Assembly (NCBI GenBank): GCA_036567745.1
Contig: DATCTW010000041.1
Coordinates: 124,260-188,259, forward strand
Length of the DNA: 64,000 nucleotides
Direction of reading: 5' to 3'
Source of the DNA: Ignavibacteria bacterium
GTDB lineage: Bacteria > Bacteroidota > Ignavibacteria > DATCTW01
Of the stretch, positions 15,123 through 62,345 are shown in pieces (the stretch's first letter is position 1; each line of letters starts with the position of its first letter). The position numbers and the translations under genes were made by a program. The notes beneath the pieces are model-generated. The model saw only the letters and a list, made by a program, of their open reading frames with translations, made no database searches and was not told where the DNA came from.

Positions 15123-15196
15123 TGCGCCCGAAGGGATTCGAACCCCTAACCCTCAGTTCCGTAGACTGATGCTCTATCCAGTTGAGCTACGGGCGC
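15123..15196 (-). tRNA. tRNA-Arg (anticodon ACG)
   Basis: The reverse complement reads GCGCCCG TA GCTC AACTGGATA GAGC A TCAGT CTACGGA ACTGA GGGTT AGGGG TTCGAAT CCCTT CGGGCGC A. This is a complete cloverleaf with a 7-bp acceptor stem, anticodon loop CU-ACG-GA and a GTTCGAAT T-loop. The 3' CCA is not encoded. Confidence 0.9.
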
Positions 15197-55238: not shown

Positions 55239-57998
55239 TCAATCTAAAGTATAACCTAGTGAGAAATAGAAAAATACCGGACCAAATATAAATGGATTAT
55301 TTGGGAGGTTCCTACTAGAAATAAATGAATTGCCTAATGAAAATATTGAGGGCCCAACTGGTGTATCTAATGCAAAACTAAGCCCGAGACCATGTCTTAG
55401 ATTTTCTAGTTTTATAGCCTCTGTTTTTTCCCATACAGAACCAACATCATAACGCAAACTTATATAAGTATCAAAAAATAGTTTAAATGGAAGAAGCCAC
55501 CTATATTCAAGGCTTGTTACAAATATTTGTCTTCCTCTGAATTCATTGTCTCTTAAACCAAAGAAAGAATTTTGTCCCCCTAGTTTATATTGTTCTGTAT
55601 ATGGCAAAGTATTATCACCATAACCGAAAATTATTTTAGGATGAAATGTATTTGTGTTTCTTGCGGTAACAAAAAATTCATAACTTATAAATGTTTTTGT
55701 AAAAGAAATTCCTGTACCTAATTTAGCAGTAGAAATTTCATGATAGACATTAAGATACATTCCCTTTTTAGGAAATGGATATAAGTCCTGTGAATCAAAA
55801 ATTAAACCTCCTTTTATACTTGATATATTATGTTTGCCGACAGGAAATCCATCACCATTGTGAGCAAATATTTTTTGATGTTCATATTTGTACTCACCAT
55901 ATAGAAAACCTAACTTTTTATACATGCCTCCAAAAGTTATTGATGGACCATATTTTATTTCTCTAAACTCACCGGATTCTTCTCTTTTCCATCGATTAAG
56001 TTTATTTGTTGGAACGGTTCTGTAGCTATATTGATCTTCAAATTGGTATTTAAATTTTGTTTTTAGGAAAAAGGGGGTATTGAATATTTTATTTGTTTTA
56101 AAATCAATTGAAGAACTCGTATTTCTAAAACCACCTTGAAAGTTAATGCCATACTCTGCACCCCCACTAAATAAATTTTCATTTCTAAAATCAAGGTATA
56201 TCTGTGAGTGTTTTTCATTATCAACTCTAATTCCCAATCTCATAATCTCTGGAGGTTTTTCTGTTACTTTTATGTTGACATCTGGTTGTTCCATTGTATA
56301 GTTTACATCGATAATAACATTTTCAAAAAGATCTGTTGATACAAGATTGTTTAACCCTCTTGTTGCTAAATTAATGTTAAATAGATCACCTTTTTGTAAA
56401 GGGAATTCCCTTAAAATCACATAATCTTTTGTATTGTTATTACCTATCACATTTACTTTATTTATTCTACCCTCGGTTATATAAATCGACAGATTCTGTT
56501 TGATACTATCGAAATCAACTTTATATATTTTCGCAAGAGATAGACCAATGTTCCTATATTTTTTTATAATGCTATCTGTAACTCTTGACCATAATTTATG
56601 ATTAAATGGTTTATCAATAAAAATCGAAAAAAGTGAATCGATATAATATCTTGATAAAAGAGAATCACCTTCTACTGATATTGATTTTATATAAGGGTAT
56701 GGTTCAAGGTTATAGTTTAATGTATATGCTTTTTCGTTTTTTGTTAATACACAATATACATCTTTATAATAACCAGTAGATTTAATTTCTTTTGTGGTAT
56801 TCAAAATATCAATTTCAGTTATTATTCTATTTTGCTGTCTGTTTATTACTTCGTTCTCTATGTCAAGAGGAATGTGTGAACCAGAAAAACTTACAGAAGT
56901 TATAAAATATTCTTTATTATTGTTGTATAGATTGCTTAAAGAATCTCTCTTTTTATTTATTTCAGAAATTTTTTTTATGGCGTATTTTTCCCCTACGCTA
57001 ATTATCGAATCCGCCTCATTAAAACTGGTTGATGAGTATTTATGTAAATCTGGTGAAATCACAATGTCAGAGCTTTTTAGTTCTCTATTATCAAATTCTG
57101 CTTGCATAACTGAAAGCATTTGGTCAAGCACTTCCCAGGGGGCATTTATTTCTTCTTTTTTTCTTAAACCGCTTGTTGTATTCACTGAAATCACCAGATC
57201 ATATCCTGCATTGATAGGGAAGTGTGCAGGAATATTTGCTAATATTCCTCCATCAATTAATTTTAATGAATCTCTTATTATTGGGGGATTAAGTAAAGGC
57301 CAGGTAAAGCTAGCTCTTATTGCTTCACTTAAATTACCTGAATCTAATGCTATGCTTTTGCCATGCGTTAAATCTGTAGTAACAGGATAAAACTTTATGG
57401 GTAATTCGTTAAACTTTTCTGTATGATGTATGCCCTGTAGTACTAAGCCATTAATTAAATTAGTAATTTCGTGACCACTCGATAAACCAGATGGAATTAC
57501 AGGTTTTAAATTTTGGAATCTTAAAGTAAAAAAGCTCTTTGAAAATGAAAGCTTTTGATCTTGATATAAGTATTCTCTTTTTACATCTTTTGTAATAGAA
57601 AAAAAGGAATTTACATCAACTGATTTGAGTAATGTTTTTAATTCCTCAGTTGAGTATCCGATAGAATATAAACCTCCGATTATTGCTCCAATGCTGGTTC
57701 CATAAATAGCATGAATTGGAATCTTATGTTCATTAAATACTTCTAACACTCCAATATGAGCTAAACCTCTTGCACCACCACCACTTAGTACTAAAGCAAT
57801 TTTTGGTTCTTTGACTCTCAGTTCAGGTATTTTGGGAAAATTTTCTGTATGTATAATTGTATCATATTTGGGTCTTATGATTATTTGTTCTTGATTTTGA
57901 GCATTGGATAAATCATTGATAAATAAATTTAATAATAAAACAAAAGTAATAATTATACTCGATAATTTTGTTTTAATTATTTTATTTGCAGAGGTCAT
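55239..57998 (-). CDS. patatin-like phospholipase fused to POTRA + Omp85/BamA-type beta-barrel (PlpD-like, type Vd secretion architecture)
   Basis: 919 aa. The patatin oxyanion hole is ALVLSGGGARGLAHIGVL, the nucleophile is GTSIGAIIGG and the Asp motif is LIDGGILANIP. A POTRA-like segment follows (ITEGRINKVNVIGNNNTKDYVILREF), then a long C-terminal barrel ending FSLGYTLD. Confidence 0.85.
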   Translation of the reverse strand: MTSANKIIKTKLSSIIITFVLLLNLFINDLSNAQNQEQIIIRPKYDTIIHTENFPKIPELRVKEPKIALVLSGGGARGLAHIGVLEVFNEHKIPIHAIYGTSIGAIIGGLYSIGYSTEELKTLLKSVDVNSFFSITKDVKREYLYQDQKLSFSKSFFTLRFQNLKPVIPSGLSSGHEITNLINGLVLQGIHHTEKFNELPIKFYPVTTDLTHGKSIALDSGNLSEAIRASFTWPLLNPPIIRDSLKLIDGGILANIPAHFPINAGYDLVISVNTTSGLRKKEEINAPWEVLDQMLSVMQAEFDNRELKSSDIVISPDLHKYSSTSFNEADSIISVGEKYAIKKISEINKKRDSLSNLYNNNKEYFITSVSFSGSHIPLDIENEVINRQQNRIITEIDILNTTKEIKSTGYYKDVYCVLTKNEKAYTLNYNLEPYPYIKSISVEGDSLLSRYYIDSLFSIFIDKPFNHKLWSRVTDSIIKKYRNIGLSLAKIYKVDFDSIKQNLSIYITEGRINKVNVIGNNNTKDYVILREFPLQKGDLFNINLATRGLNNLVSTDLFENVIIDVNYTMEQPDVNIKVTEKPPEIMRLGIRVDNEKHSQIYLDFRNENLFSGGAEYGINFQGGFRNTSSSIDFKTNKIFNTPFFLKTKFKYQFEDQYSYRTVPTNKLNRWKREESGEFREIKYGPSITFGGMYKKLGFLYGEYKYEHQKIFAHNGDGFPVGKHNISSIKGGLIFDSQDLYPFPKKGMYLNVYHEISTAKLGTGISFTKTFISYEFFVTARNTNTFHPKIIFGYGDNTLPYTEQYKLGGQNSFFGLRDNEFRGRQIFVTSLEYRWLLPFKLFFDTYISLRYDVGSVWEKTEAIKLENLRHGLGLSFALDTPVGPSIFSLGNSFISSRNLPNNPFIFGPVFFYFSLGYTLD

Positions 57999-58755
57999 TT
58001 ATTAGTTTTGCACTTTTAATGTTGTCAAATATTTTTTTTACAGAATTTATCAGGGAAAGGTCTATACTACATATCTCGTATTCTTTTGTAACCTTTGTAA
58101 ACTTGACTTCATTTCCAAAAGGATCAAATACATAAGATTTACCACAATGAATATCATTTTTTGAATTAACACCAATTACAAATATCTGATTTTCAATTGC
58201 TCTTGCTTTCAAGAGGGTTCTCCATATTTCTTCTCTTTCTTTGGGCCACCATGCCTGTACTATTAATAAATCCATGCCTTCTTTTGCCCTTTTTCTTGCA
58301 AGTTCAGGGAATCTTAGATCGAAGCAAATTATGTTACCAACTTTTATTTTATTACCGCGTAAATTAACTGTAAAATTTTTTGTGTATTTACCCGGCTTAA
58401 ATAATTTATGTTCATTTAATGGTTTGAATAAGTGAATTTTTTCGTATTCATTTATAATTTTACCATTATATAATGCTAATGAAACATTCTTTCTATCTTT
58501 ATGAGAGTGACCAATAGGGAAGGTGCCTGGGAATAATAAAATTTTGTTTTCTTTTGTAAAATTTAGAAGTGATTGTATAAATGGTTCATCCTTTGTTATA
58601 AAAAAATCGTTTTCTTCCTTAAAAACCGAATAACCTCCCAAAATCATTTCAGGCATTATAATGATATCTATATTTTTTAATTGTGCTTTAAGACTTTTAT
58701 TATTAATGGTGTTTAATGAATATGATAAACATATATTCAAGTTTTTATTTTTCAT
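57982..58755 (-). CDS. carbon-nitrogen hydrolase family protein (nitrilase/omega-amidase-like)
   Basis: Glu, Lys and Cys contexts are IIMPEM, YEKIHLF and VGNIICFDLRFPEL. I start at ATG 58755 (GGAGAAAAA immediately upstream). The ORF maximum is 58800. The 3' end overlaps the patatin gene start by 17 nt. Confidence 0.8.
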   Translation of the reverse strand: MKNKNLNICLSYSLNTINNKSLKAQLKNIDIIIMPEMILGGYSVFKEENDFFITKDEPFIQSLLNFTKENKILLFPGTFPIGHSHKDRKNVSLALYNGKIINEYEKIHLFKPLNEHKLFKPGKYTKNFTVNLRGNKIKVGNIICFDLRFPELARKRAKEGMDLLIVQAWWPKEREEIWRTLLKARAIENQIFVIGVNSKNDIHCGKSYVFDPFGNEVKFTKVTKEYEICSIDLSLINSVKKIFDNIKSAKLINDLCK

Positions 58756-58847
58756 TTTTTCTCCATAATAATTAAATAATAATATAATTAGTTGTTTCAT
58801 TATTTTTCAAGGTTATTATATAGTATGCTTTAAAAGATTATAGCAAT

Positions 58848-60914
58848 GTTGCTACATCTTCTCATATACCATTAAAGTAAACGAAGCGAGATGTTTCAAT
58901 TACCATAGGGGTAGAGCCCCTAAATGTTTGTAGAAAGACATGTAAAAACAAAACAAGCACCGTAGGTGCGACACGTATAGATATGTCAGGGCTACGCACC
59001 TTTTGAATTTTTAACGCATTAACGATTCGGTTACGTTAGAATCAGAGCCCCGATATGTTTGTAGAAATGTAATCGAAAACATAACAAGCACCGTAGATAC
59101 GACACGTATAGACATTTCGGTGTTACGCACCTTTTGAATTTTTAACGCATTAACAATTCTATTACGTTAGGGGCAGAGCCCCGATATGTTTGTAGGAAGA
59201 CATGTAAAAACATAACAAGCACCGTAGGTGCGACAAGCATAGACATGTCAGGGCTACGCCCCTAAAACAATTATCTGACCATAATTCTACAAACATATCG
59301 GTGCTACGCACCTTTTGTATTAACGACAAATAAATGTTTCCCTTACCATAGTGTCAGAGCCCCGTTATGTTTGTAGAAAGCACGAACAAAAACATAACAA
59401 GCATCGTAGATGCGACACGTGTAGACATTTCGGTGTTACGCTCCTTTTGTATTTATTACATATCAACGTTTTGTTTACATTAGGGGCAGAGCCCCGATAT
59501 GTTTGTAGGAAGACATGTAAAAACATAACAAGCACCGTAGGTGCGACATGTATAGACATGTCAGGGCTACGCCCCTAAAATATTTATCAAAATATAAATC
59601 TACAAACGTTTCTGTGCTACGCACCTTTTGTATTTACAACGCAGAAATTTTTTGATTACCATAGGGGCATAGCCCCGTAATGTTTGTAGAAAAACGAATA
59701 AAAAACATAACAAGCGCCGTAGGTGCGACACGTATATACATGTCAGGGCTACGCCCCTAAAACATTTATTTGCCAAAAATCTACAAACGTTTCGGTGCTA
59801 CGCACCTTTTTTAACATTATAAAAAATCATGAGAAACGATGTTTTGTAATTTAGGGGCAGAGCCCCGAAATGTTTGTAGAAATACGAACAAAAACATAAC
59901 AAGCACCGTTGGTGCGACATGTTAAAACATATCATGGCTACACATTTTTTGTATTTATTACGCATTGACGTTTCGATAGGGGCAGAGCCCCGATATGTTT
60001 GTAGAAAAACGAATAAAAAAACATAGCAAGCACCGTAGGTGCGACACGTATAGACATGTCAGGGCTACGCCCCTAAAACATTTATCTGACCATAATTCTA
60101 CAAACGTTTCGGTGCTACGCACCTTTTATATTTACGAAGCAAAATGTGTTGGTTACGATAGGGGCATCGCCCCGATATGTTTGTAGAAAAACAAATTAAA
60201 AAATATAATAAGCACCGTAGGTGCGACACGTAAAGATGTGTCAGGGCTACGCCCCTAAAACATTTATCAAATCATAAACCTACAGACATATCGGTGCTAC
60301 GCACCTTTTGAATTTATTACGCATTGACGTATTGATAGGGGCATCGCCCCGATATGTTTGTAGAAATGTAATCGAAAACATAACAAGCACCGTAGGTGCG
60401 ACATGTGTAGACATGTCAGGGCTACGCCCCTAAAACATTTATTTGCCAAAAATCTACAAACGTTTCTGTGCTACGCACCTTTTTTATTTATAACACAAAA
60501 ACGTTTTGCTTACGATAGGGACAGAGCCCCTAAATGTTTGTAGAAATACGAACAAAAACATAACAAGCACCGTAGGTGCGACACGATAAAAAATTATATT
60601 CGTTTCTGTTCTATGCACCTTTTTTATTAACGACAAATAAATGATATGCTTACCATAGGGGCAGAGCCCCGAAATGTTTGTAGAAAGACATGTAAAAACA
60701 AAACAAGCACCGTAGGTGCGACACGTATAGACATGTCAGGGCTACGCCCCTAAAACATTTATCAAATCATAAATCTACAAACGTTTCGGTGCTACGCACC
60801 TTTTGAATTTTTAACGCATTAAAGATTCGGTTACGTTAGGGGCAGAGCCCCGAAATGTTTGTAGAAAGCACGAACAAAAACATAACAAGCGCCGTAGGTG
60901 CGACACGTATAGAC
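58848..60914 (+). repeat. tandem array of 13 composite GC-rich hairpin units (125-190 nt each), family unassigned (REP/BIME-like or tandem small-RNA genes)
   Basis: The GGGGCAGAGCCCC hairpin recurs at 58908, 59039, 59170, 59351, 59483, 59664, 59854, 59979, 60161, 60338, 60518, 60658 and 60839. A degenerate remnant sits at 58848-58907 and the last unit is truncated near 60914. Each long unit contains GGGGC-AGA-GCCCC, GCACC-GTA-GGTGC, AGGGC-TAC-GCCCC and GGTGC-TAC-GCACC hairpins in a conserved order. Strand is given as + only because the terminator-like hairpin plus T-tract reads on that strand. Confidence 0.9.
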
Positions 60915-60989: not shown

Positions 60990-62345
60990 ATGGCAAAACA
61001 AAAATTAATATACTTTTGCAAAAATTGTGGAAATGAATCGCCAAGATGGATTGGGAAATGCCCGGTTTGTGGTGAATGGAACCAATATATTGAAGAAAAG
61101 GTTATTGAAAATAAAAATAAAAATGTAAGAAAAGCTCATGAAAATGAAAATACACCTTTTTTACTCAACGAAATTGAAACTGATAGCGAGATAAGAATAA
61201 AAACACACATTGAAGAATTCGATAGAGTATTGGGTGGTGGTATAGTTACTGGTTCAGTAATTCTTTTAGCAGGTGATCCTGGTATTGGTAAATCTACTTT
61301 GATGCTACAGATTGCACAAAAGGATTTTAATAAATCTATTCTTTACATAACAGGTGAAGAATCTTTACAACAAATAAAATTAAGAGCATCAAGACTTGGG
61401 TTAAATTCAAATACAACCTATTTTTTGGCTGAAACAGAATTGGATGCTATCGATAAAGTAATCGAAAAAATAAAACCTGAAATAATAATTATCGATTCTA
61501 TACAAACGGTCTATCACTCTTCTTTCGATAATGCACCTGGCAGTATCACACAAATAAAAGAATGTACCTATAGATTAATGCAGGTTGCTAAAACTAAAAA
61601 TGTTTCTGTATTCATAGTTGGCCATATAACAAAAGATGGGCTTATTGCTGGACCAAAAATTCTGGAACATATAGTTGATACTGTATTGCAATTTGAAGGA
61701 GATAATAATTACTCCTATAGAATTTTAAGATCAGTTAAAAACAGATTTGGTTCAACAAATGAAATCGGTATTTTTGAAATGACATCTTCTGGTTTAACAG
61801 AAGTTAAAAATCCATCTGAAATATTTTTATCACAAAGACAAATAAATTCTTCCGGCTCTACAATAGTATCTACTATAGAAGGCTCTAGACCAATACTTAT
61901 TGAGGTTCAAGCATTGGTTACTCATACAAGCTATGGTATACCTCAAAGATCATCAACTGGTTTTGATCATAGAAGGCTTGCAATTTTATTAGCTGTAATT
62001 GAAAAACGATTAGGAATAAAACTCGGTCAATATGATGTTGTTACTAACATAGCTGGAGGTGTAAAGGTAACAGAGCCTGCTGTAGACTTAGGTATTATCT
62101 CCTCAGTAATTTCAAGTTATAAGGATGTTCCCATAAATTCAAAAATGGTCGTAATAGGTGAGGTTGGGTTATCTGGAGAAGTGAGAGCTGTTAACTTTAT
62201 GGAGAAAAGACTTCAGGAGACAAAAAAACTTGGTTTCTCGAAAGTAATTATTCCTAAAAATAACATAAAAGAATCAAAAAACATAAGTGATATCGAAATT
62301 ATACCTGTTAGTACAATAAATGAATGTCTTTCTCATTTAATTTGA
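60990..62345 (+). CDS. radA: DNA repair protein RadA/Sms
   Basis: 451 aa with the N-terminal zinc ribbon CKNCGNESPRWIGKCPVCGEWN, Walker A GDPGIGKST, the KNRFG motif and a C-terminal Lon-like domain. Confidence 0.95.
   Translation: MAKQKLIYFCKNCGNESPRWIGKCPVCGEWNQYIEEKVIENKNKNVRKAHENENTPFLLNEIETDSEIRIKTHIEEFDRVLGGGIVTGSVILLAGDPGIGKSTLMLQIAQKDFNKSILYITGEESLQQIKLRASRLGLNSNTTYFLAETELDAIDKVIEKIKPEIIIIDSIQTVYHSSFDNAPGSITQIKECTYRLMQVAKTKNVSVFIVGHITKDGLIAGPKILEHIVDTVLQFEGDNNYSYRILRSVKNRFGSTNEIGIFEMTSSGLTEVKNPSEIFLSQRQINSSGSTIVSTIEGSRPILIEVQALVTHTSYGIPQRSSTGFDHRRLAILLAVIEKRLGIKLGQYDVVTNIAGGVKVTEPAVDLGIISSVISSYKDVPINSKMVVIGEVGLSGEVRAVNFMEKRLQETKKLGFSKVIIPKNNIKESKNISDIEIIPVSTINECLSHLI

Follow-up and report, generated by a model that had tools for sequence, protein, structure and literature searches.

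A tandem array of GC-rich hairpin units beside radA in an Ignavibacteria bacterium is probably a REPIN-like cluster related to a Y1 transposase element

Between the divergent genes for a C-N hydrolase and RadA, a 64,000-nucleotide (nt) stretch of an Ignavibacteria bacterium genome (contig DATCTW010000041.1 of assembly GCA_036567745.1; the whole stretch is referred to here as the window) carries a tandem array of small GC-rich hairpins. The array is probably a cluster of a non-autonomous palindromic element, similar to the bacterial interspersed mosaic elements (BIMEs) and to the hairpin-forming doublets (REPINs) of repetitive extragenic palindromes (REPs), and would be built from the gene-less miniature of an element encoding a Y1/HUH transposase of the little-studied 'subclass 1.2'. 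This reading is carried by the anatomy of the unit, the link between its hairpin module and Y1 genes, the dispersal of the element, an orthologous site with variable copy number, deletion products, and conservation without covariation. The array is unlikely to be an RNA gene family and is not a new kind of system; on this reading it is the counterpart in Bacteroidota of the REP, BIME and REPIN clusters known from E. coli and Pseudomonas.

The array consists of 13 units made from one hairpin module

Scanning of the + strand with the 31-mer TAGGGGCAGAGCCCCGAWATGTTTGTAGAAA at up to 3 mismatches gave 13 matches in the array and none in any of 100 shuffles, 13 being the count in this assembly alone. 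Their start positions are 58906, 59037, 59168, 59349, 59481, 59662, 59852, 59977, 60159, 60336, 60516, 60656 and 60837, which puts the first G of GGGGC in each copy exactly where an earlier note on this DNA had claimed 13 direct copies. The periods given there also agree with the match positions (125-190 nt) and with Tandem Repeats Finder, which returned periods of 131/132, 140 and 181/182 nt and higher-order periods of 313 and 498 nt. By MAFFT alignment and approximate matching of four conserved blocks, seven units (u3, u5, u6, u8, u9, u10 and u12) were found to be full, with 177-190 nt, and five (u1, u2, u4, u7 and u11) to be internally deleted, with 125-140 nt; the last unit, u13, is cut off at 60914, as the note had claimed. 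The G+C content is 39% in the array (58906-60914) versus 29% in the window, in keeping with the GC-richness first noticed. The open reading frames (ORFs) of the array (50-75 amino acids (aa), both strands), which had been called artefacts, indeed have no Pfam match.

Four copies of a single module make up the full 181-nt unit. Each has a G+C-rich stem of 5 bp, a loop of 3 nt and a tail beginning GAYAY. Modules A and B lie on the + strand and modules C and D on the - strand, and the unit is thus a near-palindrome with two hairpins per arm. The internal block order that the earlier note had given for a full unit is correct for 60656-60836 (u12), in which the modules are as follows.

60658..60686, + strand: module A, hairpin GGGGC-aga-GCCCC, tail GAAATGTTTGTAGAAA / GAWATGTTTGTAGAAA
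60707..60735, + strand: module B, hairpin GCACC-gta-GGTGC, tail GACACGTATAGACATG / GACAYGTATAGAC
60725..60750, - strand: module C, hairpin GGGGC-gta-GCCCT, tail GACATGTCTATAC
60774..60800, - strand: module D, hairpin GGTGC-gta-GCACC, tail GAAACGTTTGTAGA

Module B of this unit includes the 19-mer AAGCACCGTAGGTGCGACA. The A and D tails can pair with each other, and in the near-palindromic centre the tails of B and C overlap. A search with the pattern of the unit finds that unit on either strand. Folding of the unit compared with shuffles gave z = -7.5 on the + strand and -5.6 on the - strand. A strict module scan of the window found 17 modules, all within the array, versus 0.06 expected. RNAalifold on 30 units recovered the four hairpins and the tail pairing, and the modules proved near-invariant while the linkers vary freely, a pattern that resembles protein-recognised DNA motifs in related copies and is unlike that of structured RNA.

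In 6 of 9 copies of module A in the window (58895-60840) and in 29 of 83 at other loci (L212-L254), the tetranucleotide TTAC stands no more than 10 nt 5' of the module; 5' of module D it was absent (0/3 in the window, 0/52 elsewhere), and likewise it never stood 5' of B or C. By analogy with IS608, whose target/cleavage motif it is, TTAC beside module A may mark the cleavage, target or insertion site of the element. The base of the module C stem is a G.T pair (A.C on the other strand) at every locus (window 60738-60750, L212-L254); this conserved mismatch may distinguish the gene-proximal hairpin for the enzyme.

The module occurs across phyla and flanks Y1 transposase genes

In a species-representative genome collection, the 19-mer AAGCACCGTAGGTGCGACA, the core of module B, was found in at least 81 stretches (L001-L081) versus roughly 4 expected from about 1.2e12 positions. 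The hosts belong to Acidobacteriota, Bacteroidota, Ignavibacteriota, Verrucomicrobiota, Cloacimonadota, Dormibacterota and others, often with several matches per genome. The invariant core of the module is A-GCNCC-GTA-GGNGC-GACA, and the tail is lineage-specific. Strict modules at these loci numbered 184 versus 8 in shuffles, and a control scan of 41 radA loci gave 8 non-consensus matches in 400 kb. A 19-nt core identical across phyla is unusual and points either to strong constraint on the interface of enzyme and DNA or to horizontal transfer. At Acidobacteriota loci (L002, L004, L007, L009, L021, L031, L041 and similar ones) the core is followed by a second, longer hairpin (…GACA-NNGTTAGCCCAGCCCG-TAA-GGGCTGGG…), giving a different composite on the same core hairpin.

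At 14 of these 81 loci there is, only tens of bases away from a module, a gene for a ~150-aa protein. These proteins are mutually homologous, belong to the Pfam family Y1_Tnp (PF01797; E 1e-24 to 1e-26) and pass the NCBIfam IS200 model NF033573 with 64-77 bits (cut-off 55). Modules stand on either side of the Y1 gene at the loci found with the 19-mer, and they face inward. The motifs of the protein, (D/N)H(I/V)H ... WQ ... YIxNQxxHH (Y---Q--HH), match those of 'subclass 1.2' of Quentin et al. 2018 (PMC6006769). The family comprises 1,723 proteins at E <= 1e-30, annotated at source as 'IS200/IS605 family transposase' or with the generic COG label 'RayT'.

As a converse test, 80 Y1 loci were picked by protein similarity alone from at least 596 in the collection. 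The results showed strict modules within 150 nt of the Y1 gene upstream at 19, downstream at 33 and on both sides at 13 of these loci. Inward orientation prevailed over outward orientation by 25:3 upstream and 47:4 downstream, and module density was ~3.3/kb within 150 nt of the gene versus 0.067/kb beyond 1 kb, a difference of ~50-fold. In a Weeksellaceae genome (L064), aga-loop and gta-loop modules alternate ~50 nt apart around the Y1 gene, two on the + and two on the - strand, as in the window unit. The search that the earlier note had suggested, for an IS200/IS605 Y1 transposase or a REP-associated tyrosine transposase (RAYT), was decisive: modules flank Y1 genes in related contigs and across phyla, which supports the BIME/REPIN-like candidate among those named in the note.

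Two loci outside Bacteroidota, L158 (Desulfonema magnum chromosome NZ_CP061800, 3072427-3078885) and L171, hold 23 and 15 strict modules, respectively, in ~6.4 kb around a subclass-1.2 Y1 gene; in these complete or long assemblies they may be further clusters resembling the 'REPtrons' of RAYT genes. Bacteroidota-like RadA or Y1 proteins were also met on contigs labelled Acinetobacter, Vampirovibrio, Acidimicrobiia and Bifidobacteriaceae (L099, L107, L171 and L193), labels that are probably binning or labelling errors.

The four-module unit has a gene-bearing form

A search pattern for the window's own subtype of modules A and D matched 7 loci in genomes and 40 contigs from metagenomes, the latter mostly of 25-35% G+C and from anaerobic digesters and activated sludge. 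The same four-module composite forms tandem arrays in metagenome contigs, in at least 17 different flank contexts. At three loci of this subtype and of similar G+C content (L212, L222 and L253), a Y1 gene (153 aa; motifs DHIH, WQ and YIENQKNHH) lies exactly between modules B and C, indicating that the autonomous form is A-B-[Y1]-C-D, an order seen in L212 and L253, and that the window unit A-B-C-D is its gene-less miniature.

Copy number differs at the orthologous site of related lineages

In the species-representative collection the best RadA identity was ~55-57%, and no usable synteny was obtained from those loci; megablast of the window against metagenome contigs gave no flank matches. Three orthologous loci were recognised by protein-level and blastn-task searches. 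The first, L219, encodes the patatin protein (99.6% identity) and the hydrolase (96%) found beside the window array, and its contig ends within the array. The second, L232, is a 1,491-nt contig with the N-termini of the hydrolase (97%) and RadA (96%) and 84.5% DNA identity to the window; its intergenic region of 527 nt holds three units (A-C-D, A-B-D and a truncated A-B) and shares the left junction, the truncation point and the right flank of the window array. The third, L213, is a more distant ortholog of the hydrolase side, with ~1.3 units oriented as in the window, and its neighbour on the far side is a different one. The shared junctions imply that the array was already present in the common ancestor and that its copy number changed later (about 1, 3 and 13 units), with the proviso that repeats may be collapsed when short reads are assembled.

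Individual units record deletion and decay

The array is made up as follows.

58848..58905: left junction; ~20 nt beside the first hairpin (…GATGTTTCAATTACCA) similar to the inter-unit linkers and conserved at the junctions of L219, L232 and L213
58906..60914: array in its entirety; 13 units in tandem, of which 7 are full, 5 have internal deletions and 1 is truncated, with some 45 small GC-rich hairpins
58906..59036, + strand: u1, 131 nt; A, B and a C/D hybrid hairpin AGGGCTACGCACC at 58988-59000
59037..59167, + strand: u2, 131 nt; A stem degenerate, B stem broken (GCACC/GATAC), C deleted
59168..59348, + strand: u3, 181 nt; full A-B-C-D, with the A tail GATATG pairing perfectly with the D tail CATATC
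59349..59480, + strand: u4, 132 nt; C deleted, A (GTGTC) and D both degenerate, stem of B compensated (GCATC/GATGC)
59481..59661, + strand: u5, 181 nt; full A-B-C-D
59662..59851, + strand: u6, 190 nt; full A-B-C-D with a longer linker
59852..59976, + strand: u7, 125 nt; A, B with GTT as its loop, and a C/D hybrid hairpin that is degenerate
59977..60158, + strand: u8, 182 nt; full, all four modules equal to the consensus
60159..60335, + strand: u9, 177 nt; full, central spacer variant GACACGTAAAGATGTGTC near variants at L220 and L249
60336..60515, + strand: u10, 180 nt; full
60516..60655, + strand: u11, 140 nt; C deleted, A with one mismatch in its stem, B, and D in degenerate form
60656..60836, + strand: u12, 181 nt; full reference unit
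60837..60914, + strand: u13, 78 nt; A and B only, stopping after GACACGTATAGAC

The hybrid hairpins of u1 and u7 take their 5' half from C and their 3' half from D, and u1 is a deletion product of recombination between these two hairpins. In u2, u4 and u11 the B tail is joined directly to the D tail (in u2 the D hairpin follows at 59119-59131), and several stems of the short units are broken. Unit u11 is similar to unit 2 of the orthologous L232 array, and the truncation point of u13 and the right flank (an A-run and TTAGAATTGAAAC) are identical in L232.

Window units are 85-94% similar among themselves and 88-93% similar to the L219 unit, and somewhat less so to units of other loci. The divergence of 6-15% between units indicates that amplification is not recent. 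Of the 12 linkers between units, four gave a better alignment to the left flank than did any of 500 random 42-mers, and the part shared with the flank is the ~20 nt by hairpin A that is conserved at the left junctions of L219, L232 and L213. Clusters of REPs arise by tandem duplication of a unit together with flanking DNA (Di Nocera et al.; PMC3733652), and the likeness between linkers and left flank fits duplication of the unit plus flanking DNA.

From these features a course of events can be proposed. The four modules are presumed to be the recognition hairpins of the Y1/HUH single-strand DNA transposase. Y1 enzymes process folded single-stranded REP or IS ends (PMC8266576, PMC6006769). By analogy with the TnpA enzymes of IS608 and ISDra2 and with E. 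coli TnpA-REP, a Y1 protein supplied in trans would bind the folded hairpins on single-stranded DNA, such as the lagging-strand template, and might cut and rejoin beside them, seeding a unit at the hydrolase/radA site. The anatomy suggests that neighbouring units would then have recombined unequally or slipped during replication, that such local events account for most of the growth and shrinkage of the array, and that internal deletions could have arisen where hairpin C recombined with the like-oriented hairpin D, or the B tail with the D tail. The element probably persists in a permissive divergent intergenic region, and nothing calls for a host benefit; the hairpins could secondarily affect local DNA structure or transcription, and an effect on the two divergent promoters, as raised in the earlier note, is possible.

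Comparison with REP, REPIN and RAYT systems

The array resembles REP, BIME and REPIN systems in several respects. It is composed of short GC-rich extragenic palindromes; its inverted doublets form a larger hairpin, as REPINs do, through pairing of the A and D tails and the near-palindromic B/C centre; its units are reiterated in tandem together with flanking DNA, as in REP clusters; and copies occur at orthologous sites in related lineages, as REPs do. In related DNA, a Y1/HUH gene is flanked by inverted copies of the same repeat, the arrangement of a RAYT 'REPtron'. There are also differences. Each palindrome arm holds two hairpins, making four per unit, unlike in a REPIN. Classical REPs are lineage-specific and differ between related genera, whereas the core hairpin here is near-identical across phyla. 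The REP/RAYT systems compared here are those of Enterobacteria, Pseudomonas and Stenotrophomonas, whereas the hosts of the present module are Bacteroidota and other non-proteobacterial phyla.

A number of points weigh against the assignment of the array to this group. RAYTs are class 2 enzymes (Y---NP), whereas the partner here belongs to the IS200-related subclass 1.2 (Y---Q--HH); it fails the NCBIfam RAYT model REP_Tyr_transpos (19-23 bits, cut-off 80), and the closest structures in PDB are the TnpA proteins of ISDra2 and IS608, with no E. coli RAYT match at E <= 1. The 5' GT[AG]G foot of canonical REPs is missing from the module, in which the only GTAG sequences span the junction of loop and stem or lie within the tail (TTTGTAGA); the array module instead has a 3' GACA/GAYAY tail and a GTA loop. 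REPs typically sit at gene 3' ends, and a position between divergent promoters is less typical. Outside the array, the 64 kb of the window hold no module copy that would speak for dispersal in the source genome, and tblastn of the window found no Y1 gene. A 95%-identical Y1 protein does occur in metagenome samples from which array contigs, orthologous or related, also come, which is co-occurrence only; the nearest Y1 proteins (P0001 and P0002) come from ENA and JGI samples and not from the Logan sample SRR2059973. Current mobility is doubtful, as the units are 6-15% apart and several are decaying.

Alternative explanations

The next reading is that the array consists of an active selfish miniature inverted-repeat transposable element (MITE) of IS200/IS605 type, akin to the palindrome-associated transposable elements (PATEs), and not of a domesticated system of REP/RAYT type, with units that are recently mobile miniatures of a true insertion-sequence (IS) transposase. 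Several of the features given above speak for it: the Y1 protein scores above the cut-off of the IS200 model and below that of the RAYT model, the solved structures nearest to it are those of ISDra2 and IS608 TnpA, with which it shares its Pfam/NCBIfam Y1 family, and the unit is the gene-less version of a gene-bearing element, which keeps both element ends as PATEs do. The small subterminal hairpins are likely recognition elements as in IS200/IS605, and TTAC, the IS608 target, is enriched directly 5' of module A only, that is, beside one end. However, the gene is flanked by inverted copies of one module, the hallmark of REP/RAYT, and not by two distinct, like-oriented ends; there is no tnpB, and the miniature forms long tandem arrays, unlike in IS200/IS605. 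The units, moreover, are 6-15% diverged and stand at an orthologous site in lineages ~15% diverged in DNA.

The literature on the enzymes also bears on this reading. Subclass 1.2 was described as having a low copy number, ~36% identity between copies and no IS200-type ends (Quentin et al. 2018; PMC6006769), a low number of Y1 gene copies being a further difference from IS200/IS605. The IS200 Group 3 of Bertels et al. 2017, which is probably the same as subclass 1.2, has no duplicates and no plasmid copies, has abundant flanking 16-mers and is the IS200 group closest to RAYTs (PMC5581495). The proteins found here resemble subclass 1.2 in length (~148-155 aa), in the motifs DH[IV]H, WQ and YIxNQxxHH and in their presence in Bacteroidetes; they differ in that their genes are bracketed by a defined hairpin module, which is also dispersed and arrayed, and in that they occur in wider taxa (Acidobacteriota, Ignavibacteriota, Verrucomicrobiota, Cloacimonadota and others). 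In the table of Quentin et al. 2018 no REP is listed for subclass 1.2, in a REP search that demanded the 5' GT[AG]G foot (PMC6006769). On this balance, an active selfish MITE is unlikely.

Alternatively, the array might serve the host as a cis element, its hairpins being candidate protein-binding or structural sites that would insulate or tune the divergent hydrolase and radA promoters in the manner of BIME binding by gyrase or integration host factor (IHF). The array does lie between divergent genes and is retained at the orthologous site in related lineages, and such roles have been reported for REP/BIME elements (PMC3733652). Nevertheless, its copy number differs about tenfold between close lineages, its units decay, and arrays sit in many unrelated contexts, which makes this explanation very improbable.

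Still less credible is a tandem family of structured small RNAs, another candidate of the earlier note, in which each unit would be a gene with a GGTGCTACGCACC-TTTT terminator. The strong folding of the full unit (z = -7.5), the T-run after the D hairpin on the + strand and some tail pairs that would be U.G on that strand are what such a family might show, but the - strand folds equally well (z = -5.6) and terminator-like hairpins occur on both strands, 27 versus 2.1 expected. A search of Rfam 15 returned nothing for the array at gathering thresholds, and at E <= 10 gave weak matches far below these thresholds, mostly to eukaryotic miRNA precursor families. In the RNAalifold alignment of 30 units from many loci the covariation term was 0.05, with double changes in 2 of 25 pairs, a value that is uninformative for structure as the modules are nearly invariant. 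Sigma-70-type promoter-like sites were not in excess (9 versus 9.2 expected), which is weak evidence given that the tool does not cover Bacteroidota-type promoters. In addition, the modules flank a transposase gene in inverted arrangement and occur in both orientations at many loci, the same site holds 1, 3 or 13 copies, and 5 of the 13 units are decayed. The flanking genes point away from the array, so that read-through transcription is not expected.

A CRISPR array is ruled out by the 125-190 nt periods, the composite units and the variable linkers that recur between units, the grounds on which the earlier note had correctly rejected it. Two further candidates, type III toxin-antitoxin RNA repeats and tRNA-like arrays, do not agree with the length and anatomy of the unit.

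A possible multi-phylum partnership of module and enzyme

The pairing of REP or REPIN with RAYT is the textbook case of a transposase and miniature repeats persisting long in bacterial lineages. To our knowledge, it is known almost entirely from Proteobacteria and from class-2 RAYTs. No paper with the module sequences was found in the searchable literature, and RepRanger 2025 counts generic palindromes only; the repeat family of the array therefore seems not to have been described previously. The suggestion of the earlier note that the array could be an undescribed type of element holds only weakly: the kind is known (REP/REPIN-like and linked to Y1), whereas neither the repeat family nor its link to subclass 1.2 was found in that literature.

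It is conceivable, and we propose it tentatively as a possibility that falls a little short of probable, that the module A-GCNCC-GTA-GGNGC-GACA and the subclass-1.2 Y1 enzyme form an unrecognised REP/RAYT-like partnership spanning several phyla, a second independent route from IS200 to (semi-)domesticated repeats, with double-REPIN arrays in Bacteroidia. If this is true, the hairpin of the partnership has stayed almost unchanged from Acidobacteriota to Bacteroidota, and the mobile unit of low-GC Bacteroidia is a four-hairpin 'double REPIN' that builds kilobase arrays, suggesting that IS200-like enzymes became REP-type systems more than once. The array provides an anatomy for the DNA partner of subclass 1.2, namely four modules, a gene-bearing parent, dispersed arrays and an orthologous site with 1, 3 and 13 units, and it makes the substrate of the subclass-1.2 Y1 enzyme directly testable in vitro. 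Within the window itself it is an ordinary repeat cluster for whose host role there is no evidence; the link between enzyme and hairpin at the level of the family is the interesting part.

Genomic setting and assembly of the array

The genes that flank the array are divergent. The C-N hydrolase gene (57982-58800, - strand) shares an operon with the gene of a patatin/Omp85 protein; radA (60990-62345, + strand) begins at the position given in the earlier note. For the hydrolase the note had placed the start at 58755, which is indeed an in-frame ATG, whereas the first ATG of the ORF, which gives the longest ORF, is at 58800, 15 codons earlier. The residues between these two ATGs (…NYYGEK; window 58753-58800) appear to be kept in the distant ortholog L213. 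Domains of the type IX secretion system (T9SS), PorV and CHU_C, are encoded in the window and place it in Bacteroidota.

In the short-read Logan assembly of SRR2059973, which has identical RadA and hydrolase, the contigs (L123 and L124) stop at both array edges, at a distance of 108 nt from radA and of 179 nt from the hydrolase gene. This break indicates that the repeat is real and does not in itself support an array length of 13 units. The repeat explains assembly breaks at such Bacteroidota loci, and arrays of this type are likely to be systematically under-represented in metagenome-assembled genomes (MAGs) from short reads. A gap of N was seen inside the array of the Weeksellaceae MAG (L064, 5331-5470). 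The rest of the window holds low-complexity AT-rich chance repeats only. A tRNA gene at window positions 15123-15196 (- strand; 67 bits) is the sole Rfam match at the gathering threshold in the 64 kb.

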